The notes below the pieces were generated by a model. That model had not been told where the DNA came from and searched no databases. It saw only the letters and a program-made list of their open reading frames with translations. From assembly GCA_002328405.1 (NCBI GenBank), contig DCXM01000006.1:711837-775836 (forward strand): DNA of 64,000 nucleotides. The letters are read 5' to 3'. The DNA comes from Proteobacteria bacterium UBA2136. Its GTDB lineage: Bacteria; Pseudomonadota; Alphaproteobacteria; UBA2136. The position numbers and the translations under genes are program-made. Shown in pieces: positions 28,020 through 38,014 of this stretch; within the stretch, counting starts at the first letter, position 1, and each line of letters begins with the position of its first letter.

Positions 28020-28715
28020 ATGAATCAATCAGTAGATCTACCAATGGTAGATAGTCAACCACGTGTACGTCGTTCAACCTATATTGCCAATCACTTGCGT
28101 AATATGATTTTTACAGGTGCCTTAAAACCAGGTGACCGCTTACCAACAGAAGAGCAGCTATGCAAGCATTTTGGTGTATCTCGCACCACATTGCGTGAGT
28201 CTGTTCAGATGTTGCGTGTTTCTGGCCTTTTGGATGTGACACCCGGTCGCGGTAGCTTTATTCGCTTGCCAGACCCTGGTGTTTTGATGAAGGATCTTGC
28301 GCTTTTGGGGCAATACAGCACCATGGATAAAGAAGACGTTGCAGCATTGCGTGTTTTGTTAGAAGTGGAAATGGTTCGCCTTGCTTGTGAAGCTTCTGCT
28401 GAAAAGAAAAAGATTTTACAGTCTTACGTTATCAGCCGCCAAGGCAACGCAGAAGAAATTGAAGAAACAGAGCGTCAATGGCACATGGCAATTGCGGAAG
28501 TGGCTGGCAACAGCCTGAGCAAAACCATGCTAGAAGCGTTGCTGAGCATGCAAAAAGTGGATCGCTTAAAGCGTTTTGAGGACGCTGACGAGATTATGAG
28601 AACCATGGGTGTGCAAATTCGCCTAAATTCTGCCATCAATGAAGGCGATAAGAACATGGCTGTGCGCGTGATCTCAAGCTACTTGGGTAGCGTTGCGCCA
28701 CAGTTGCAAAACTAA
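28020..28715 (+). CDS. GntR-family transcriptional regulator (FadR/FCD subfamily)
   Basis: wHTH LPTEEQLCKHFGVSRTTLRESVQMLRVSGLLDVTPGRGSFI plus a helical C-terminal domain. Confidence 0.85.
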   Translation: MNQSVDLPMVDSQPRVRRSTYIANHLRNMIFTGALKPGDRLPTEEQLCKHFGVSRTTLRESVQMLRVSGLLDVTPGRGSFIRLPDPGVLMKDLALLGQYSTMDKEDVAALRVLLEVEMVRLACEASAEKKKILQSYVISRQGNAEEIEETERQWHMAIAEVAGNSLSKTMLEALLSMQKVDRLKRFEDADEIMRTMGVQIRLNSAINEGDKNMAVRVISSYLGSVAPQLQN

Positions 28716-28733: not shown

Positions 28734-29285
28734 TTACTTTAAGTTTTTGATGTAATCTTGAATAATTTGGAAGGCTACGTTAATTTTTTTAACGTGGTCT
28801 TCTTCTTTTTTAGAGCCCTTGTTAAGGTCTGGGTGGTGCTTTTTCATCAACGCAAGGTATGTCTTTTTTAAGGTGGCAAAGTCAATGGGCAGTTTAATGC
28901 TTAAAATATCGCAAGCCTCTTGCACATCTGGGGTGACTTCTTCGGCTTCTTCTTCTGTGTAAAATCCATATGATTTACGGATGTTTTCTTCCCGCTGGCG
29001 CTGTTTGAAAAAGGTGAACAAGTCTTCGGCATTGGCAAAGGTGAACTGTGCTGTTTTGGCGCTGACACCGTGGATGCCAAAGCGTCTTGTAGGTCGGTTC
29101 CATGTGGACTTTGTTTGCATGGCGAAGATATCGTCATCGCTCATGCCATCCAAGCCGTTCCATCGTTTGTTGAATTCTTTAATATGCTCTTGGCAAAAGT
29201 ATTGACGGTCGTAAATGTCCTTCGTGCTCTTGGGAGCAGCAAAAGTTCCTTCTTCCTTACAGTTTGGCCATGCACATTTTTTCAT
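28734..29285 (-). CDS. J-domain protein with N-terminal Cys-rich region
   Basis: C-terminal J domain (LKKTYLALMKKHHPDLNKG, HPD present). N-terminal CAWPNC ... FCQEH. Lies 47 nt downstream of the prepilin peptidase gene on the same strand, with no obvious terminator between them. Confidence 0.75.
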   Translation of the reverse strand: MKKCAWPNCKEEGTFAAPKSTKDIYDRQYFCQEHIKEFNKRWNGLDGMSDDDIFAMQTKSTWNRPTRRFGIHGVSAKTAQFTFANAEDLFTFFKQRQREENIRKSYGFYTEEEAEEVTPDVQEACDILSIKLPIDFATLKKTYLALMKKHHPDLNKGSKKEEDHVKKINVAFQIIQDYIKNLK

Positions 29286-29332: not shown

Positions 29333-29926
29333 TTATAGAAGGTGCTTAAAAAGCATAAAGCTCCACAAGGCCAAAATCAGGGCAGGTCCAAAGGAAATAT
29401 GTTTGTTATATGCCCTTAAAACTGGCCAAAGTAAAAGCGCAAAAAAGAATGCCAACCAAAAAAAGTAATGTAGATTTAAAACCCCGACAAAAGCCCCTGC
29501 GGCAAGGCAAAACTTAATGTCGCCACCGCCGATGCCGCTGTGTTTGTCCATTTTTTCTGAAATGAAGTTAAGTATCAGCAAGCTAAAGCCAGCAACCACA
29601 ACCCCAAAAAAGGATTCTACGGGTGTAACATGGCTTGACCAAAAGCTGTAAATCAGACCAATTAAAGCCAGTGGAAGGGTGTAAATATCCAATAAAATAA
29701 GGTGCTTAAGGTCAAGGGCGGTCAGCCGTGCCAGTAAGGGGGAAATGGCGCAGAGAACCATGGCCTCTAAGCTTAAAATTGCACCGTTGAAAGCGCATGT
29801 TAAACTGGTTATGAACAGCAACCATAAGCCCAGCCAAAGCTTGTTGAGGGGCAGTTGATGAAAAGGCCCTTTATCAATTTCAGCTTGGGGGATAAACCGC
29901 TTTTCAATTGGCCACATATCACTCAT
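29333..29926 (-). CDS. Prepilin peptidase (A24 family), peptidase-only form without N-methyltransferase domain
   Basis: ARLTALDLKHLILLDIYTLPLALIGLIY and GIGGGDIKFCLAAGAFVG, the two catalytic Asp motifs. About 197 aa. ATG 29926 overlaps the upstream stop (ATGAGTGA); the listed ORF extends to 29992. Confidence 0.75.
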   Translation of the reverse strand: MSDMWPIEKRFIPQAEIDKGPFHQLPLNKLWLGLWLLFITSLTCAFNGAILSLEAMVLCAISPLLARLTALDLKHLILLDIYTLPLALIGLIYSFWSSHVTPVESFFGVVVAGFSLLILNFISEKMDKHSGIGGGDIKFCLAAGAFVGVLNLHYFFWLAFFFALLLWPVLRAYNKHISFGPALILALWSFMLFKHLL

Positions 29927-30824
29927 AAATAATGGACGCAGAAAACGGTGGTTTGTTTGGGTTTGGTCGGTCTTGGATAAAGTTGGAGTCATATTTTAAA
30001 ACCCGTTTCCAAGGGTCAAAGGCAAACTCTTCAGGCAAGCCAATTTTTTTCATCAATTCGGCCATGCTTAAGCTGTCGCCGGAAACGTAAATGGTGTTGC
30101 TGCCACCGGTTTTGACGTCGTCATAGTAAGTGGCGCCGGAAATATCGGTGTTGGATTGTGGGTAAAAGTTAAATTCGGTGTATTTGTCACCATCGAGTGG
30201 GAAGTTGTAGCACCAAGCGGCTTCTGGGCATTCGGCCTGCGCTTCAATAAAGTTGGCTGAGCTGTAATCTTCTAGCTTGCTGATAATCAATTGGGCACGA
30301 CCTTGATATTCGTTCACACGGGCTTTTTCCACTTCAAAGGTAGTGTATTTAATGCCAATGTCATCGTTTAAAGGTTGCCATGTGTTCCACTCGGCTTCAA
30401 AAGTTGGTGCAGGGGTGTCGTCGACACCGTCTTTACCGGAAGAGTGGATGGTGGCAAGGTTTTCGGTCACCTCAAAGTCATTGATGCGGGTTGTGCGGGT
30501 TAAGGTGTTGTAACGCCACTCATTGTCCCACGGGTCTTTTAAAAGGGTGGTTTCTTCAATGTAGCCTGTTTCAAAAAGGGTGCGCACGTCAGGTGCAAGG
30601 GCTGTAAAGCCTTTGCCTTTGTAATGGTTTTCTAACGCGTCTTTAATAATTTGTAGGCCAATTTCAGCGCCTTCAACGCGGCTTCGCTCAAGTTTTGACA
30701 TCATGGTTACGCCACCTGTGGCCGCCAGCACACTGGCGATAATCAGCGCAATACGCGCATCCATACCAAACATGGCACCTTTTTGGTTGGCTAAAAAGTG
30801 ATTCAATTTGAGCAATGGTTTCAT
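29919..30824 (-). CDS. GspG-like pseudopilin with non-canonical leader junction
   Basis: MKPLLKLNHFLANQKG|AMFGMDARIALIIASVLAA, then a GspG-type motif LLKDPWDNEWRYN ... IHSSGKDGVDD. Confidence 0.6.
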   Translation of the reverse strand: MKPLLKLNHFLANQKGAMFGMDARIALIIASVLAATGGVTMMSKLERSRVEGAEIGLQIIKDALENHYKGKGFTALAPDVRTLFETGYIEETTLLKDPWDNEWRYNTLTRTTRINDFEVTENLATIHSSGKDGVDDTPAPTFEAEWNTWQPLNDDIGIKYTTFEVEKARVNEYQGRAQLIISKLEDYSSANFIEAQAECPEAAWCYNFPLDGDKYTEFNFYPQSNTDISGATYYDDVKTGGSNTIYVSGDSLSMAELMKKIGLPEEFAFDPWKRVLKYDSNFIQDRPNPNKPPFSASIIYE

Positions 30825-30834
30825 GCGTTGATTT

Positions 30835-31560
30835 TTACCTCATATCTAAACGTTTTTTATAAGTATAACCCCAAGGCGCCGTAAATGAAAGCACAACAAC
30901 CTTGTCTGACTTTCGGTCATATTTAAAAGGTTGGCCCCACACGTCTTTAAGGCCTGTGGCGGCATTGACTTGTGTTTTATATTCTTCATTAGATGGGAAC
31001 TTGTAACCGTAAGTCATGTAAGAGCGGTAAATGACCGAGGTTTCACGCTCTAGCAGTTTTTTGCTTTCAGCAATTTGTTTTTTGCGTACATCTTCGCTGT
31101 CAAACATCACCACACTGTCTTTTGCGGTGTTATAATCGGCCATAGCGTCACTGCCCAGTGTGCCAATTTCTTTTTGAATGCTTTCATCGTCGGATGTGGT
31201 GATCAACACCCGTTTGTTGGTGGTGTTAAAAGCACCACTTTTGACGGCACTGCTTAAAAAGGCTTGTTCGCCAGACTTTGTTTTACCTGTACTACCACTT
31301 AAAAATTGTTGCGCACGCTCAAGGTTGATGTCATTGCTAAAGCCTGTGGTTGCAACGTTTTCTGTCAGCATCGCGTTTTCAAGGGCTTGTTTGATTTGCT
31401 CGGCCTTTTGGCGTTCTTGCTGGATGTTTTGCTCTTCAATGTTGACAATTTCACGCTTGGCCCAGTGGTTCATGGCGGCGCTAAAGACAGCCACCCCCAT
31501 CAACATACCATACATAAAAGGGGAAAAAGCACCGCGCTGGTTTTGAAGACCTTTAAGCAT
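30835..31560 (-). CDS. Pilin-like protein (short basic leader ending in G-A, hydrophobic helix)
   Basis: MLKGLQNQRG|AFSPFMYGMLMGVAVFSAAM. C-terminal DVWGQPFKYDRKSDKVVVLSFTAPWG resembles the GspG DPWG..Y motif. Confidence 0.5.
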   Translation of the reverse strand: MLKGLQNQRGAFSPFMYGMLMGVAVFSAAMNHWAKREIVNIEEQNIQQERQKAEQIKQALENAMLTENVATTGFSNDINLERAQQFLSGSTGKTKSGEQAFLSSAVKSGAFNTTNKRVLITTSDDESIQKEIGTLGSDAMADYNTAKDSVVMFDSEDVRKKQIAESKKLLERETSVIYRSYMTYGYKFPSNEEYKTQVNAATGLKDVWGQPFKYDRKSDKVVVLSFTAPWGYTYKKRLDMR

Positions 31561-31574
31561 GCAAACCTCCTTGT

Positions 31575-32720
31575 TTATAAGGCAATTTTAATTTCTAGGA
31601 CGTATTGGTTGTCCAACATATCAAGCACAACTTTGCGTGATAAGATTTCTTTAATCGTTGCATTAATCTTATGGGAGTTACCTTGAGTTTTTTGCCCTAA
31701 AATACCGGCACGTTCAGCAAATTGATCCAACGCTTCTTGCTTTAAAAGCAGGTACTGGTTGTAGGATTCTTCTGAAATAGCTTCCTTGTTCGGCATGTAA
31801 GACTCGATCAATGCTTCAATTTCTGATGTGTCCTGCTCGGCATAGGTGACACGAATGGGGATGCGGTCCCCTTCGGTGTAGCGTTTGTTGTTGATAATGG
31901 CATAAGGGTACGGCGAGGTAACAATGCTTTGAATGCTTAGCTTTGCAAGTTCGCTTTCAAAGTCAATTTCCTTGATGTTTGCATCCCGTGTTTTGGTGGC
32001 TTGGGTGATGATGTTTTCCAAAAAGGATGCAAATGCGTCCAACCCTTGCCTTTGTTCGGTGGTGATTTTATCAAGGTTTGGCAAGTCGTTGATAGAAATA
32101 TGGTACTCAGGCAATCCGGTAATGTCGGGTGTTTGCTCTTCTTCCTCTGCAAGGTCGCTGGACTTAAGATATTGATTGCTTTCCCCTAGCATGGAGTCGA
32201 ATGATTCGGCAATGCTTTTTTCGCGGTGAGCTTCCACCACGTAGCCTTCATCATCGACTTCAATTTTAACTTTGCGATTGTCGGCCAAAATTCTGGCTTG
32301 ATTGCTGGATACCAGTTCGGCTTGTGCCACAGCACCGGTGGACAAGCGCACTTCTAAACCGCTGCCAATTTCAACATCGGGGTACACTTCTTTAAACTTA
32401 CGGTTTTGTTTTTTAAGGCCGAACCTTTGTTCGAAAACGTCACGGCTGTATTTACTGCGCCCAATGTCGGATGTCAGGGGTTTGGGGGTGTAAGGGTCAA
32501 TGTTTTTGGTGGTCAACAGGTCCTTTAAAGTTGCAATGTACTTTTCGGACTCGTCGCCTTTTTTGCGTTCATATTCGCTGATGACATCTTGCCTTAAAAA
32601 CTCAAAGTCTGGCTGGCCAACAAAGGTTTTTGGCCATGGTAAACCTTCTTGGGCCACTGCGGTGGAAATAAATATAGATGACGCCAGTAAAATGTTAAAT
32701 GATGTTCGGATCATACGCAT
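31575..32720 (-). CDS. Secreted/periplasmic component of the filament operon, function unknown
   Basis: Signal peptide MRMIRTSFNILLASSIFISTAVAQ. Acidic 381-aa protein. No secretin-type motifs recognised. Confidence 0.5.
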   Translation of the reverse strand: MRMIRTSFNILLASSIFISTAVAQEGLPWPKTFVGQPDFEFLRQDVISEYERKKGDESEKYIATLKDLLTTKNIDPYTPKPLTSDIGRSKYSRDVFEQRFGLKKQNRKFKEVYPDVEIGSGLEVRLSTGAVAQAELVSSNQARILADNRKVKIEVDDEGYVVEAHREKSIAESFDSMLGESNQYLKSSDLAEEEEQTPDITGLPEYHISINDLPNLDKITTEQRQGLDAFASFLENIITQATKTRDANIKEIDFESELAKLSIQSIVTSPYPYAIINNKRYTEGDRIPIRVTYAEQDTSEIEALIESYMPNKEAISEESYNQYLLLKQEALDQFAERAGILGQKTQGNSHKINATIKEILSRKVVLDMLDNQYVLEIKIAL

Positions 32721-33201
32721 AGAGGTACCCTTCTATATTGATCATGTGTTGGTCTTCGGCCAGTTGTTCGTTGGTAGCGCCGCAGCCAAAGCACAGGTTG
32801 TAAATGACAAAGCCTGGCAATGACGGCAAGGTTTGCATTTTTTTAAGCAGTTCTTGCGTTTCGTTAAATGTGGCTGGGCCGGTAATTTTAAAGGTGTGGC
32901 GAATGATGCCAAGGTGGGCATCTTGCCTTCTGGCTTGGCCAATGAAGTTAAATTTCAGGCCAGGTTCACCAATTTCAAGTAAACGCTCGATGATGTTTTT
33001 CTTGTCGTCACCACGGACCACGGCAAATTTTGGAATTTGCTTGCTGCGCTGTTCAATGCGTTGGTAGCGGTCAAGTTTGTCCTTTGCTTCAATGAGGCCA
33101 CGTTTTTTGGCAACAATCAGGTCTTCATTTTCCATGTATTTATAACTGCCGACAATGGCTGTAAAAACAAGGATAGCAATACCGAGTGTGAATTTCATCA
33201 T
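32695..33201 (-). CDS. GspM / PilO-like bitopic assembly protein (topology-based call)
   Basis: N-terminal TM (FTLGIAILVFTAIVGSY), a coiled-coil stretch, then a ~100-aa globular domain. Position is between the GspL-like and periplasmic genes. Confidence 0.4.
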   Translation of the reverse strand: MMKFTLGIAILVFTAIVGSYKYMENEDLIVAKKRGLIEAKDKLDRYQRIEQRSKQIPKFAVVRGDDKKNIIERLLEIGEPGLKFNFIGQARRQDAHLGIIRHTFKITGPATFNETQELLKKMQTLPSLPGFVIYNLCFGCGATNEQLAEDQHMINIEGYLYAYDPNII

Positions 33202-33206
33202 GGGGT

Positions 33207-34337
33207 TTATTCTCCTTCGCTGGTGGCCGTGCTGATGGTTTGCTGTTGCGCACGCTTCACATCTTCTTGGTATTCGGCCAGCATTTCCGAAATAGGTTCT
33301 AGTTCTACCAAGCCTTCAATGGTAAATTGGTTGCCACCTGGTGGACGGCGAATACCGGACATGGTCACGCTTTGACCCAACAACGCCTTGCTAATCGGCT
33401 CTTCTTCCAGCCAGCCTTTGTAAGCATCTTTTTGGGCTTTGATGGTCACCAGTAAGATGTCCGAAGGTTCTTGCGCGTCCGGTGTTTTAATTTCAAAGTT
33501 AGCAATTTTCATGCCCGAGCGTTGAATGGCGTTGGCCACGTCGGTCGCCACGAATGACATAAGATTGCGGTAACGCATAAATTGCTGTTGCTCGGTGATG
33601 GCACGGTTAAGCTCTAGGTAGCTTTTACCCGATGGTGTTTCAAGGTCCACCGTACGAATTTTTTGTGAAAGGTCGTCAATTTCACTGCCTTGAATGAAGA
33701 TAACGATATACGCCATGATCGCCACAAGAATGGAAACAAACATCAAGGCAAAGCCATACTTTTCTTGGAAGCTTGGCATGTTAACCCAAGCATCTTCTGT
33801 GATCTCTAGATCGTTCACAGAGCGCAGTTTAACGCCCAGTTCGCTAATGCGGTTGTTTTCCCATGAGGTGTATAAAAATCGTTCCGTTGTCCGTGGGTAT
33901 GACTTTAAAATGTTTTGAATGTCCCGCACCCATGAAACAGGGGAGGTGGGCTGAACATAACTGTCATTGCTGTCCCAGTGGAAGATGATGTCTGCGGTGA
34001 CGAGAATATGCACTTCGTTGGCGTTGTTACTGCGCATCCGGCACATGTCAATCAATGGAATGTCCCCAAAGGCTTGTTGTGCAATTAAAATGCTTTGTTC
34101 GTCGGCTTCCTCTTCAGAATCTGTAAGGTAGATGTACGGGTCAATCGGCTCGCCGTCAAGGTCACGTGGTGCAAAGAAAAGTAGCGCTAAGTTTCGGCGT
34201 GACTGTTCATCGGTCACGTCCTGCCACGTGTCCGCAAAGATGGACTCGCTTGAACTTTCGGGGAAGTATTCAACACGGTTTAAGCCAAGAAAGCAGATGT
34301 TCTTGAACTTTTGACCAATTTCAAAACTTTTTGACAT
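33207..34337 (-). CDS. GspL / PilM-PilN-like bitopic assembly protein (topology-based call)
   Basis: About 195-aa cytoplasmic part, a single TM (FALMFVSILVAIMAYIVIFIQ), and about 160-aa periplasmic part. Immediately downstream of the platform gene. Confidence 0.4.
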   Translation of the reverse strand: MSKSFEIGQKFKNICFLGLNRVEYFPESSSESIFADTWQDVTDEQSRRNLALLFFAPRDLDGEPIDPYIYLTDSEEEADEQSILIAQQAFGDIPLIDMCRMRSNNANEVHILVTADIIFHWDSNDSYVQPTSPVSWVRDIQNILKSYPRTTERFLYTSWENNRISELGVKLRSVNDLEITEDAWVNMPSFQEKYGFALMFVSILVAIMAYIVIFIQGSEIDDLSQKIRTVDLETPSGKSYLELNRAITEQQQFMRYRNLMSFVATDVANAIQRSGMKIANFEIKTPDAQEPSDILLVTIKAQKDAYKGWLEEEPISKALLGQSVTMSGIRRPPGGNQFTIEGLVELEPISEMLAEYQEDVKRAQQQTISTATSEGE

Positions 34338-34353: not shown

Positions 34354-35448
34354 TTAGTTTTGTGACATCACAATAGCCAACATTTCCAACAGCAACACAG
34401 CGCCACCTAACAACCACATAATGGTTGAAAATACACTGATAAACTTGGTGTAAGCGTCGTTCAGCTCACGCTCAAGAATAGAATAGGCGTGGTTCATCCC
34501 CTCAATCATCACATCGTTGATGCCACGTTCGTTACCAGCGTAAGTTTCTGAAACTTTAACCGGTGTCACAGAAATCATTGGGAAGCCAGCTTTTTCCATA
34601 GCGTCGGACATTTGCCCACCTGTGGTAATAACCTGATTAAACAGGTCAATCCGTCTTTTTAAAATGGCGTTGGTGGCCAAGGCTTCCATAATGGGGATCA
34701 TTTGCTTTGGTTTCACGCCACTGGCAATTAAATGTGGGAAGTAAAGCAACATGCTGGCATATGTTTTGTATGTGATGTACTTACCAAAACCAGGGATACG
34801 TAAAACATAACTGTCAATCCAAAAGCGGCCTTGGGCGGACTTGGCCACACTGTAAGCTGTGACACAAAAAATAATAAATCCACTTAATAAAAAGTACCAG
34901 TAGTTTGCCATGCTTGCGGTAAAGTCCATAATCATTTGTGGAATGGCAGCCATTTGCTTGCCTTGCGCTTGGCGCATTTGTGCCATGGTTGGCATGGTGT
35001 TTAAACCGGTGTTAAAAAGGGAAATGCAACTCATAAAGAAGAGAATGGAAGGCGTGATAATTTCCGCCATACCACTGCGCTGGTTTTTAATCTTCTTGTC
35101 TTCAAGTTGTTGTAATAACTGGAACGCTTGGGTCATGTTGTTAGAAGCTTCACCTGCCAAAATGGCAGCGCGGTGAATATCCGTAAACAGGACATATTCA
35201 TGTTCAGATGCGCGGCTAAGCGGCTTACCCTGTGCCACTTTTTGGGCAATACCGTGGAGGGCGGCGCTCAGCTCTTCTTTTTTCTCAGATCGGAAGGCAC
35301 GGGCAACAGCGCGGACACAAGCCTCGGTAGGCTGTCCACTTTTGAGCATTTGGTGCATCAAGAAAAACAAGCGCTCGCGGTCACGCGCGCTGATTTCTCG
35401 ACATCTAGGGCCAATGCCGTCGTTACTGAATTGTTTCCATATCTGCAC
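34354..35448 (-). CDS. GspF / PilC-family inner-membrane platform protein
   Basis: Two-repeat layout with ILAGEASNNMTQAFQLLQ-type motifs and three TM segments. Overlaps the ATPase gene end by 26 nt. Confidence 0.75.
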   Translation of the reverse strand: MQIWKQFSNDGIGPRCREISARDRERLFFLMHQMLKSGQPTEACVRAVARAFRSEKKEELSAALHGIAQKVAQGKPLSRASEHEYVLFTDIHRAAILAGEASNNMTQAFQLLQQLEDKKIKNQRSGMAEIITPSILFFMSCISLFNTGLNTMPTMAQMRQAQGKQMAAIPQMIMDFTASMANYWYFLLSGFIIFCVTAYSVAKSAQGRFWIDSYVLRIPGFGKYITYKTYASMLLYFPHLIASGVKPKQMIPIMEALATNAILKRRIDLFNQVITTGGQMSDAMEKAGFPMISVTPVKVSETYAGNERGINDVMIEGMNHAYSILERELNDAYTKFISVFSTIMWLLGGAVLLLEMLAIVMSQN

Positions 35449-37120
35449 TAAAGAATTTCTCCAGTTCTTCTAAACTTGTAATACCATTTTTAACATGCAA
35501 CAAACCGCCTGAAAGCATGTCAATCATATGACCGCTTGAGCGTGCTTGTTCTCGAATAATGTCCAGCCAGTCTGGGCGCAAACGGGTGTTTGTCCAAATG
35601 TTACGGCTGATGTCCTTGCGCCAAAGTTCTAAAACCTCTTCAATGGCAATACGGCCAAGGTAGCCGCGGTAACGGCAATGTTCACAGCCGTTGCGGTTGG
35701 GTCTGTAAATAATGTCGCCAGCTCTAAAGCCTACTTTGCGCAAGTTGTTTAATTTGTCGGCGTATTCCAAATCAATCTCTGTGGGGATTTTGCATTTAGA
35801 ACAAAGTCTACGCACCAATCTTTGCGAAATAATCCCACGGACGTTGGTGAAAATCTGCTCTGGCGGCACTTTACGTTGAATCAATCGATCCAGCGTCATA
35901 AAGGTATCGTTGGCGTGCATGGTGGTGATAACAAGGTGACCAAGGTTACCAGCGTCAATCGCCTTTTGGGTGTCCTCAGGACTTCGCACCTCACCAATAA
36001 ACAGCACGTCAGGGTCCAAGCCAAGGGCTGCATACATAAATGTTTCAAGGTTTAAACCGGCGGATGTGTCTTCCTCTGTTTGGATGACGTTGTCCATCCG
36101 TTCCTCAATTTGTTTTTCATACGAAATAACGTTTTGACCTGGGCGTTGACCACGGCGAATCATCAAACGTGCGGCGGTGGATTTACCTGAACCTGTTGGA
36201 CCAGAGAAGATGATACAGCCTTCTTCAAAGCGCATGAGGTTGTCAATTTTTTCAATGGTGGTGTTGGAGTAACCAAAGCTGTCCAAGTTCCCTTCAAAGG
36301 ACCTTAAGAAACGCATAGCAATTTTGGCTGTACCTTCTAAGGTGATGGGCTGGGTTGTGTAACGAATATCCACCTGTTGCCTTGATGAAAGGTCAAAGGT
36401 CATACGGCCGTAAAGTGGCTTTTTGTAGTTTTCCGCACGGACACCGGCAATGTGGCGCAAGCGTCCCAAAACGCGCTCATACACTTCCACAGGCAGGGGC
36501 ACAAGCTCTTCAAGTTCGCCATCAATACGGGCAAGAACCGTTGGCTTACGGTTTAAAATTTCAATGTGTAAATCGGTGGCGCCGTTTTTAAAAGCGGTGC
36601 GGATGATTTCGTCTGTTAGTGAAACGATAGCGTCATCATTCCCTTGGTTGATTTGCGCATAAGCATTCTCAACCAAGAATTTTAGGGAGTGACCTTCACG
36701 CTTGGACATGCGCTCAATCGCCCCTTCAATGGCTTTAGGCGTTGCCCAAACAAACTCGTGGCGGGACTTGCGGTGACGCAACACAATTTCACTGACCAAG
36801 CGCTTGTTCGGCAGATCGGCAGCGGCCCAAATAATGGTTCCACGTGCCAACTCAATCGGGCAGGCGGTGTAAAACATCATAAACTCACGGTCAATGCCGT
36901 CAATCTGGTGTGGGGTGGTGGCCATCATTTCTTCATCGCTTTTGATAGTGTAGTCATAAGCAATGGCACGGTAGCGCATTTGCTGCACTTCTGACAATTT
37001 ACCCGCACGACCAAGGGCTTCAATCAAGGCGTCAGGATCTTTTTGTACCGTAACAGGGAAACCTTGTAGGTCCCCAATTGTTACAATATGATCACTGATC
37101 ATCAAATCGACAATGTCCAA
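35423..37120 (-). CDS. Type II secretion / type IV pilus assembly ATPase (GspE/PilB family)
   Basis: Walker A FSGPTGSGKST, Walker B DPDVLFIGEVR, His box GHLVITTMHAN, tetracysteine CSKC...CEHC. TTG start preceded by AGGGGG. Confidence 0.9.
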   Translation of the reverse strand: MDIVDLMISDHIVTIGDLQGFPVTVQKDPDALIEALGRAGKLSEVQQMRYRAIAYDYTIKSDEEMMATTPHQIDGIDREFMMFYTACPIELARGTIIWAAADLPNKRLVSEIVLRHRKSRHEFVWATPKAIEGAIERMSKREGHSLKFLVENAYAQINQGNDDAIVSLTDEIIRTAFKNGATDLHIEILNRKPTVLARIDGELEELVPLPVEVYERVLGRLRHIAGVRAENYKKPLYGRMTFDLSSRQQVDIRYTTQPITLEGTAKIAMRFLRSFEGNLDSFGYSNTTIEKIDNLMRFEEGCIIFSGPTGSGKSTAARLMIRRGQRPGQNVISYEKQIEERMDNVIQTEEDTSAGLNLETFMYAALGLDPDVLFIGEVRSPEDTQKAIDAGNLGHLVITTMHANDTFMTLDRLIQRKVPPEQIFTNVRGIISQRLVRRLCSKCKIPTEIDLEYADKLNNLRKVGFRAGDIIYRPNRNGCEHCRYRGYLGRIAIEEVLELWRKDISRNIWTNTRLRPDWLDIIREQARSSGHMIDMLSGGLLHVKNGITSLEELEKFFSADMETIQ

Positions 37121-37164: not shown

Positions 37165-37200
37165 ACTAAAAAACGCCAAACATAAAAGACTTGGCGTTTA
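37165..37200 (-). terminator. Rho-independent terminator after the major pilin-like gene
   Basis: Minus strand: AAACGCCAA-(11 nt)-TTGGCGTTT followed by a T-run. Lies between the pilin gene and the ATPase gene, the arrangement typical for major pilins. Confidence 0.65.
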
Positions 37201-37274
37201 AATGGGCTTAAATTAACCAAAGAGCGTGCAGAGCGATGCGTTGTTTTTCACACACTCTAAAAAGTTATAGCTCT

Positions 37275-37838
37275 TTATTTTCTGGTCAGGCGGTAATAAA
37301 GGGTAGCTTTGTCGGTTGCTTGGTCAATGTCCACCAGCAAGCGGCCACTGTCTGGCGAGCCTTTTTCGTCCAAGGCGCCGTCAATGTGTTCATCAACCGA
37401 TGCGGCAAGGTTGGCGGGCACTTCTGTAAGTTTGGCCCAAACAAAGCAAATGTCACGGCGGTTCACACATGGGCGCGGGCTGCGACCTTTAATTTTACGC
37501 ATTTCAATGCCATATTCTAAGCTGTAACGACCAAAGGATACATGGTTCTCTGAGGACATGATCATGTAAGGGCCGCTCCACCCAAGCTGACCACCGTCGT
37601 TGTTCAATAGATCCGAAAAGGTGTTGGTGTTGACAGATGTATCAAGCTGGAAGTTTGTATAAGCTTTAGAGATGTTGTCAAGCTCGGTGGCAAGGGCGGT
37701 TACTTGGGTTTGTTGAATGTAGCCGTAACCAGCGGTACCTGCAATAACACTTAAACCACTGAAGATGGCCAAGGTGATCCGTGCATCCATACCAAACAAT
37801 GCACCTGTTTGAGATTTTAATTTTTTAAATAACAACAT
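37275..37838 (-). CDS. Major pilin/pseudopilin-like protein with non-canonical leader junction
   Basis: The start is set at ATG 37838: MLLFKKLKSQTG|ALFGMDARITLAIFSGLSVIAG. Contains GWSGPY, as in GspG-type pseudopilins. First gene of the cluster, with its own terminator. Confidence 0.6.
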   Translation of the reverse strand: MLLFKKLKSQTGALFGMDARITLAIFSGLSVIAGTAGYGYIQQTQVTALATELDNISKAYTNFQLDTSVNTNTFSDLLNNDGGQLGWSGPYMIMSSENHVSFGRYSLEYGIEMRKIKGRSPRPCVNRRDICFVWAKLTEVPANLAASVDEHIDGALDEKGSPDSGRLLVDIDQATDKATLYYRLTRK

Positions 37839-38014
37839 CTTAAAGCCCTTAAATTTTAATTTGTCTTTTAATGTATGTTTATTTGCGCCTTGTTTGCAAG
37901 TTTTTTGCAAGAACTTAAGCGGTAGGGTGTGAAATCGCACTTTGTTGTTGTGTGGATTTCGTCACGCATTAAGCGCGCATTAAAAAAGAGGCCGAAGCCC
38001 CTTTTTTTTAATCA

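Follow-up and report, generated by a model that had tools for sequence, protein, structure and literature searches.

The class III (prepilin) signal peptide of pilins is described, in the portions of PMC10191384 that deal with it, as a leader with a final Gly or Ala and, after it, 20–25 mostly hydrophobic residues, with Glu at position 5 (Glu5) "often, but not always" present. The same source states that, in known filaments, Glu5 is salt-bridged to the N-terminal amine of the subunit next to it, and that minor pilins at the tip lack Glu5 as a known rule. In GspG, a pseudopilin of type II secretion systems (T2SS), the leader is followed by F-T-L-[IL]-E, an N-terminus that an earlier note on the DNA analyzed here called "universal" in the form G|FTLIE; this was an overstatement, given the "not always" of PMC10191384. 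Here we describe a cluster of ten genes, all in one direction and closing with a peptidase-only A24 enzyme and a J-domain protein, from the uncultured, marine Proteobacteria bacterium UBA2136 (assembly GCA_002328405.1, contig DCXM01000006.1, positions 711,837 to 775,836, a stretch of 64,000 nucleotides referred to below as the window). Its pilins carry, in place of the GspG sequence, a junction of the form A-M-F-G-L-D-A-R. We propose that this junction, shared by a large family of GspG-related pilins, is probably the class III signal peptide in a lineage-specific version. The machine itself is well known, and it is the variant junction that is apparently undescribed. Our full-text search with motif strings and keywords found no paper with the motif or on such pilins, and all named family members, including members of 10 representative clusters, are annotated as "hypothetical protein". 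The text of the superfamily survey PMC6668835, as far as it could be consulted, names no Alphaproteobacteria-specific type; clusters that fit no type are left there as "generic", and its supplementary tables could list such clusters under that label.

The first gene of the cluster (37275–37838, minus strand) encodes a GspG-related, presumably major pilin of 187 aa, whose N-terminus reads MLLFKKLKSQTG-ALFGMDARITLAIFSGL (in a longer read, MLLFKKLKSQTG-ALFGMDARITLAIFSGLSVIAG). The second pilin (301 aa; 29919–30824, minus strand; NQKG-AMFGMDARI) begins with MKPLLKLNHFLANQKG-AMFGMDARIALIIASVL (in a longer read, MKPLLKLNHFLANQKG-AMFGMDARIALIIASVLAATGG). Reading the two N-termini side by side confirms the near-identity that the earlier note had claimed for them, and their common pattern is a basic leader followed by Q-x-G-A-[LM]-F-G-M-D-A-R-I. 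In the first gene, codons M1–G12 (37803–37838, minus strand) specify the leader peptide MLLFKKLKSQTG, which is short and basic with Gly at its end, and codons A13–I21 (37776–37802, minus strand) specify the junction motif ALFGMDARI. Asp stands at +6, as the note had it, while Arg does not follow immediately but stands two residues after Asp, at +8 (D-A-R); both are invariant in 12 of 12 orthologs. The third protein singled out in the note, a pilin-like protein of 241 aa (30835–31560, minus strand), indeed begins with MLKGLQNQRG-AFSPFMYGML and has no acidic residue in this region. It matches no Pfam or NCBIfam model, and we regard it as a candidate tip minor pilin with a second, acid-less class of junction, which is kept in 9/9 orthologs as Q-[KR]-G-[AGN]-[FV]-S-P-F-[ML]-[FI]-G. 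The note knew only two proteins with the D-A-R junction; the genome holds four. The 1.73-Mb genome has 19,422 stop-to-stop frames that reach 40 aa, and the regular expression G-x-x-F-G-x-D-A-R occurs in four of them, namely the two window genes and a tandem pair of paralogs on contig C2 (HNQKG-AMFGLDARITLAIF and SNQKG-AIFGFDARIAIAIF). All 12 orthologs of the first gene found by a word search (64–99% identity) share Q10, G12, A13, L14, F15, G16, D18, A19, R20 and I21, whereas the nine orthologs of the 301-aa pilin are divided between AMFG/AVFG-MDAR (five) and AMFS-[ML]-DAR (four). This recurrence of the motif in four frames and in the orthologs is far beyond chance.

We take the annotated start codon of the first gene to hold. 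Its longest frame opens at GTG 37940, and the earlier note had named a different start with a hidden GFTLIE junction as an outcome that would speak against its reading. What we found is that the 12 orthologs start at the equivalent Met (length 187–189 aa, with one gene call of 193 aa) and that no G[FM]TLIE-type string is present anywhere in these motif-bearing frames. A weak hint in favour of the ATG start comes from contigs of two metatranscriptome runs of one sample, which form separate pieces (37289–37833 and 37192–37838) with upstream ends at 37833 and 37838, stopping at the ATG; the contigs from two DNA runs extend past the gene on either side. The depth of the RNA-run contigs cannot rank genes, and we claim no expression level.

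Our family profile, built from ten members (alignment A2) and searched against 1.84 billion representatives clustered at 50% identity, matched 857 clusters at E<=1e-3, of which 694 reached E<=1e-10 and 46 E<=1e-30. The motif is present not only in the 12 of 12 orthologs mentioned above but also in 148 of the 150 best representatives, which carry F-G-x-[DE]-x-R near the N-terminus, both misses being N-terminally cut fragments. In the logo of these 148 sequences, numbered with the leader-end residue as 0, the leader ends with Q 70, K 48 or N 17 at -2, K 86 or R 40 at -1 and G 125 or A 20 at 0. It is followed by A 143 at +1, M 132 or L 14 at +2, F 148 at +3, G 148 at +4, L 135 at +5, D 145 or E 3 at +6, A 142 at +7, R 148 at +8 and I 130 at +9, and then by A-L-A-I-F-G-A-L-S-V-I-S-G. 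Neither the window genes nor the family show the G|F-T-L-[IL]-E N-terminus of GspG, and Glu at position 5 is absent, the acid standing at +6 instead. The first eight residues hold two charges (Asp+6 and Arg+8) instead of one, and Arg+8 is followed by approximately 21 hydrophobic or neutral residues. The leaders are mostly 4–19 residues long, K or R precedes the leader-end position in 126/148, and the G or A at the leader end itself is in line with the signal definition given in PMC10191384, as far as that source was available.

The carriers of this family are all metagenome-assembled genomes (MAGs), labelled as Alphaproteobacteria, Proteobacteria or Magnetococcales, or under plainly imprecise names, for instance Pseudomonadaceae. 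Back-translated motifs matched 234 stretches of the species-representative genome collection, and 161 of them encode relatives; the 79 loci that we kept comprise 130 motif-bearing open reading frames (ORFs) from 30 MAG assemblies, as counted by accession prefix. Of 401 genomes sampled evenly across the class, 13 gave a match to the family profile at E<=1e-5. Seven of these matches cover the junction; they belong to the window's own genome, to two congeners, to another genome of the order and to three genomes of two further families, with genome sizes of 1.6–2.0 Mb. In the window's order, the family is present in 28 of 29 genomes, and the sole genome without it is 78% complete. One of the carrier lineages, MarineProteo1, is presented in the consulted part of PMC10411912 as a MAG-only basal lineage beside the core Alphaproteobacteria. 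Some carriers show a pronounced expansion of the pilins: the fetched DNA of MarineProteo1_Bin2 contains at least 32 paralogs and that of UBA12223 at least 29, often arranged in tandem (assemblies PTJW with 19 loci and DMEM with 18 loci, e.g. L043, L047, L060, L065 and L089). The first 30 mature residues of these paralogs are on average 98% (MarineProteo1_Bin2) and 97% (UBA12223) identical, and the heads diverge. Longer modular proteins with the variant signal were represented by one case (423 aa) among 8000 scored candidates, which is weak evidence.

The relationship to GspG was revealed by profile–profile comparison. Aligned with hhalign against six canonical GspG-type sequences (alignment A4), the family (alignment A3) gave a probability of 98.5% and an E-value of 1.7e-15 over 80 columns, from the motif Arg through the W-x-G-P-Y block. 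As this homology extends over helix and head, it lends indirect support to a predicted lollipop fold, with a long N-terminal helix and a globular head. PF08334 (T2SSG) matches 16/62 family members at E<=0.1, and the 301-aa window pilin scores marginally against this model (21.4 bits versus a cut-off of 21) and at 20.7 bits against TIGR01710 (cut-off 88.85). Among the ESM Atlas neighbours, unnamed clusters come first, with T2SSG in 11–13% of their members, followed by N_methyl/T2SSG pilin clusters. The agreement of these three lines leads us to regard the family as derived from GspG. The hhalign alignment pairs Arg+8 with canonical +7 and the conserved Gly+15 with canonical Gly14, so that Asp+6 falls on Glu5 after an insertion of one residue; the same one-residue gap appears in a non-significant HMMER alignment with a geopilin. 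According to this register, F-T-L-I-E would have become A-M-F-G-L-D, and the residue two positions further on an invariant Arg. The six weaker matches of the class sample, which make up alignment A4, begin only at profile position 19–23 and are canonical pseudopilins with G|[FYVL]-T-[LF]-[ILV]-E. The earlier note's idea of an undescribed class III variant agrees with our results in that the junction is family-wide, unmatched by the signal models and found in no paper, and needs qualification in that its Asp occupies the Glu5 register once the inserted residue is allowed for.

The same genome also encodes a canonical pilin system (contig C7, 391–405 kb; L094), with a secretin, an 880-aa ATPase and a platform protein, whose pilins read AAG-YTIDQ, AQG-FTIVE (PF07963-positive) and NKG-FSIID. 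The last gene of this canonical cluster encodes a stand-alone A24_N_bact (methylase-domain) protein of 159 aa. The genome has no second gene of this kind, and it is the canonical pilins, rather than the variant ones, that this methylase-domain gene accompanies. The peptidase of the variant operon (197 aa; 29333–29926, minus strand) contains PF01478 (E 1.6e-12) and no other domain, with both Asp motifs visible, and its sole weak named matches are to FlaK (NCBIfam E 0.006; PDB 3s0x E 0.35). It had been correctly noted that this enzyme lacks a methyltransferase domain, but this does not set it apart: none of the 51 A24 matches in the order's 29 genomes is in an open frame longer than 307 aa, so that going without a fused methylase domain characterizes the lineage and not this operon in particular. 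What ties the peptidase to the variant pilins is its position. It is found at the same place in 9/9 complete operon loci, and in the class sample its six best places, with nearly full-length matches at E<=1.1e-18, fall in six of the seven genomes that bear the junction, each 1–2 kb from the long pilin. In the seventh (G238), a relative adjoins the long pilin with an E-value of 3.5e-14. The genomes with junction-covering matches (7/401) are exactly those with a peptidase relative beside the long pilin. The link rests on synteny (7/7 genomes) and not on a gap in scores, since G238 scores like genomes without the junction. A presence/absence comparison of pilin and peptidase within the order is uninformative, because the family occurs in 28/29 of its genomes and two A24 matches in 22/29.

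A second peptidase-only A24 gene (contig C7, ~523 kb; L095), to which we return below, is 31% identical to that of the operon; it lies ~120 kb from the A24_N_bact gene, adjoins the gene of the CCA-adding enzyme and looks like part of a split PilD. A stand-alone pilin-like gene elsewhere on this contig (183998–184570; L005/L104) begins with KSQTG-LAADEAV, with Asp4 and Glu5, and is present in 21/21 relatives searched. It is a paralog of the 199-aa gene 3' of the canonical secretin and not of the variant family; we rejected C7:184001–184561 (KSQTG-LAADE) as an intermediate form, its nearest paralog being that 199-aa gene of the canonical cluster.

Where the leader would be cut is a separate question, and for a cleavage at the first Gly (G|A) we put the chance at roughly one half. 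This site is favoured because the Q-[KR]-G end of the leader is common to the D-A-R pilins, the 241-aa class and the canonical pilins of the same genome, because the position is occupied by G or A only, and because the second Gly is variable (Ser in 4/9 of the 301-aa orthologs, Pro in the 241-aa class). G|A is also the site commonly cut by peptidases that lack a methylase domain, such as TadV and FlaK. The alternative that survives best, though we hold it to be rather unlikely, keeps the same family and machine but moves the cut by one residue, [KR]-G-A|M-F-G-L-D, with Met1 and Asp5 in the pilins and Phe1 in the 241-aa protein. It would suit a register with exactly one extra residue between Gly and the acid, as well as the conservation of Ala+1 (143/148) and of Met+2 (132/148), which is unusual for an internal Met. 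In the 241-aa class, G-[AGN]-[FV]-S-P-F would likewise give Phe or Val at +1, and leaders ending in Ala are allowed by the definition in the available part of PMC10191384. Yet one 241-aa ortholog (L040) would then have Asn at -1, and the basic residue would sit at -3, whereas the usual position is -2.

A different view of the same N-termini is that they are uncleaved signal anchors of bitopic inner-membrane components, with A-M-F-G-L-D-A-R serving as a cytoplasmic or interfacial docking motif. Asp+6 and Arg+8 do precede a hydrophobic stretch of 21 residues that could span the membrane on its own, but homology to the GspG pseudopilins and the retention of an A24 peptidase in the operon (9/9 complete loci) speak against such anchors, as do leaders that vary in sequence and in length (4–19 residues in most) and tolerate in-frame insertions while the junction stays fixed; we consider this improbable. 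Still less can be said for a cut after the second Gly (A-M-F-G|L-D-A-R), which would make the leader long and in part hydrophobic and let the mature protein start with L-D-A-R: all 148 short-pilin representatives, in which the first position varies (G 125, A 20), have the second Gly, but it is replaced by Ser in four of the nine 301-aa orthologs and by Pro in the 241-aa class, which share the operon and the peptidase, and the acid would land at +2 in the register. Finally, an annotation artefact, in which a true start elsewhere hides a canonical junction or the N-termini are alike by local duplication without wider meaning, can be practically dismissed, for although the frame of the first gene extends to GTG 37940, the frames hold no canonical motif, the orthologs share the Met start and the motif is family-wide.

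In ten variant-pilin genes of two MAGs we found an in-frame, stop-free insert of 120–129 nt, which adds 40–43 residues and brings the leaders to ~45–50 residues. Each insert is preceded by a partial copy of the junction (..KG-AMFGL[ED]xR) and followed by the real one; the genes concerned are L046:704-886, L047:960-1142, L048:551-733, L070:3977-4159, L073:6839-7021, L087:2261-2443, L088:9875-10057, L090:6284-6544, L079:1432-1605 and L093:1515-1688. The insert contains a terminator-like hairpin with compensatory changes at three pairs, and the copy in L048 has the same length but a different sequence. The core 28-mer of the insert was not found outside these genes among 115 loci, nor did the insert match Rfam. 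It may act as a regulatory leader, or it may be tolerated within the part that is cleaved off; that 40–43 residues can be accommodated here is expected if everything upstream of the real junction is removed.

If the junction is indeed a variant class III signal, the prepilin would enter the inner membrane, its basic leader facing the cytoplasm, and the A24 peptidase of the operon would remove the leader, with [KR]-[G/A]|A as the likeliest site. The ATPase and the platform could then polymerize the mature subunits, probably not N-methylated, into a pilus or pseudopilus with the acid-less 241-aa protein at its tip. Asp may take over the charge-neutralizing role of Glu5 in the helix core, with Arg+8 acting either as its partner, the role suggested in the earlier note, or as a determinant that restricts these pilins to their own peptidase. 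An outer-membrane secretin, if one is used, would be encoded elsewhere in the genome. The acid-less 241-aa protein calls for no new chemistry, since tip minor pilins lacking Glu5 are known, according to the relevant part of PMC10191384.

Several observations weigh against the interpretation as a variant prepilin signal. An Arg within the presumed membrane helix is unusual for a pilin, and cleavage, its site, filament assembly and the Asp–Arg contact are all things that we infer from sequence. The N_methyl model of Pfam (PF07963) matched none of 62 family members at E<=0.1, whereas the canonical pilins of the same genome, which served as a positive control, do match this signature; likewise, neither PF07963 nor the NCBIfam (release 20) signal models, TIGR02532 among them, matched any of the nine operon proteins at E<=1. 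The product of the first gene (37275–37838) matches no model in Pfam or NCBIfam, the Pfam pilin models included, and in the PDB sequences the profile found only matches with E of about 1 (TnpB twice, and the geopilin mentioned above). None of the 79 loci has a secretin within 10 kb. With regard to the peptidase, the gene at ~523 kb of contig C7 could process the variant pilins instead of that of the operon, and the E-value of the G238 peptidase (3.5e-14) is no better than those of the top genomes without the junction (5.5e-14 and 2e-13). The RNA-run contigs, for their part, may stem from DNA in the library.

Going further, one may speculate that A-M-F-G-L-D-A-R defines a separate branch of type IV filaments in deep-branching, uncultured Alphaproteobacteria-like lineages including MarineProteo1. 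In such a branch a built-in Asp–Arg pair would replace the contact between Glu5 and the N-terminal amine, a co-evolved methylase-free peptidase would separate the variant from the canonical pilins, and libraries of at least 30 paralogs would supply interchangeable heads for one fibre. We regard this wider scenario as tentative and on balance doubtful. Because PF07963 and TIGR02532 miss the family, the machine seems to lack subunits in the carrier genomes, and clusters by the hundred keep the label "hypothetical". The family offers a natural experiment on two features of bacterial pilins that are usually taken to be nearly fixed, namely the distance from the cleavage site to the acid and the absence of a basic residue from the buried helix. 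With two classes of pilin signals and two peptidases, this one small genome could also serve in studies of peptidase specificity. The carriers are uncultured lineages with small genomes near the base of Alphaproteobacteria, and their filaments may, as a speculation, bear on an attached or predatory life.

With the remaining genes of the cluster, the variant pilins have a complete machine to themselves. The second gene (35423–37120, minus strand) encodes an extension ATPase of 565 aa (PF00437, E 3.9e-66), which scores 244 bits against the PilB model and 223 bits against the GspE model, both far under the cut-offs, and 156–166 bits against the solved PilF, GspE and PilB; the TadA-family and FlaI models gave 29.7 and 25.8 bits, respectively. 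Its N-terminus matches MshEN (25.8 bits versus a cut-off of 23.1), a domain that binds cyclic di-GMP (c-di-GMP) in MshE, and the machine might be regulated by c-di-GMP. It is followed by a GspF/PilC-type inner-membrane platform protein of 364 aa (34354–35448, minus strand; PF00482, E 8.2e-16; GspF model 99 bits, below the cut-off). Next come an accessory protein of 376 aa in a GspL-like position (33207–34337, minus strand; no Pfam, NCBIfam or PDB match; syntenic in 10 loci) and one of 168 aa in a GspM/PilO-like position (32695–33201, minus strand; an N-terminal hydrophobic segment, no Pfam or NCBIfam match; syntenic in nine loci). A protein of 381 aa with a Sec-type signal-like N-terminus (31575–32720, minus strand) scores 18 bits against T2SSB, below the cut-off, has a PDB match with E 0.45 and is syntenic in nine loci. 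We dropped the names GspL, GspC and GspH considered for the 376-, 381- and 301-aa proteins, as phmmer searches against the PDB returned nothing useful. The nine pilus genes are syntenic in eight loci according to tblastn and also in a ninth (L034), where a diverged peptidase was confirmed by Pfam; a tenth syntenic locus is cut by a contig end.

Upstream of the first gene lies a promoter-like site whose second hexamer ends at 37853, the number of such sites being not above the shuffle expectation. On its 3' side is a terminator-like hairpin (37171–37199, minus strand) with an 11-pair stem and a T run, a consensus match only, in a count again not above the shuffle expectation. The tenth gene encodes a J-domain protein of 183 aa (28734–29285, minus strand; PF00226, E 3.1e-9) with a Cys-rich N-terminal part, which follows the peptidase in 9/9 complete loci; such a fixed J-domain co-chaperone is unusual in a pilus operon. 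Beside the cluster, in eight of nine complete loci, is a divergent gene for a GntR/FCD regulator (28020–28715, plus strand; PF00392 and PF07729). Elsewhere in the genome there are two secretins, one in the canonical cluster and an orphan ~38 kb from the variant operon (PF00263; contig C7, 701986–703701; L096:3986-5701), which is preceded by an acidic, signal-bearing ORF of 218 aa. This orphan is a candidate outer-membrane pore for the variant cluster; we saw no linkage of the two in other loci.

Of the known systems, the T2SS with GspG/PulG provides the homologous head and the homologous helix from +8 onwards, the W-x-G-P-Y block, the equivalent of Gly14 and the Q-[KR]-G leader end, together with a PilB/GspE-type ATPase, a platform of the GspF type and, at the places of GspL and GspM, two accessory proteins that are bitopic. 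The variant operon differs from it in the junction (A-M-F-G-L-D-A-R versus F-T-L-[IL]-E), in a peptidase without a methylase domain, in having no secretin or GspC in or near it, in an ATPase and a platform far below the GspE and GspF cut-offs, and in the ~30 or more pilin paralogs of some carrier genomes. It resembles the type IVa pilus (T4aP; PilA, PilB, PilC, PilD) in that the gene of the major pilin comes first with its own terminator-like site and that the top scores of the ATPase are those against the PilB model (244 bits) and the solved PilF and PilB, but it has no recognisable PilMNOPQ or PilT, and its pilins have a GspG-like head, another junction and a monofunctional peptidase. With the Tad/Flp system (TadV) it shares the peptidase-only A24 enzyme and the small residue after Gly; the variant pilins, however, lack G-x-x-x-x-E-Y and are ~190–300 aa long, compared with ~50 aa for Flp, the ATPase is not of the TadA/CpaF type, and a single two-domain platform stands in place of TadB and TadC. 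Archaeal class III signals (FlaK/PibD) are similar in their [KR]-[G/A] end, a small residue at +1 and no Glu at +5, and the peptidase of the operon is weakly FlaK-like, whereas the proteins of the cluster, including the ATPase, are of the bacterial T2SS/T4aP type and the variant pilins have their invariant Asp and Arg.

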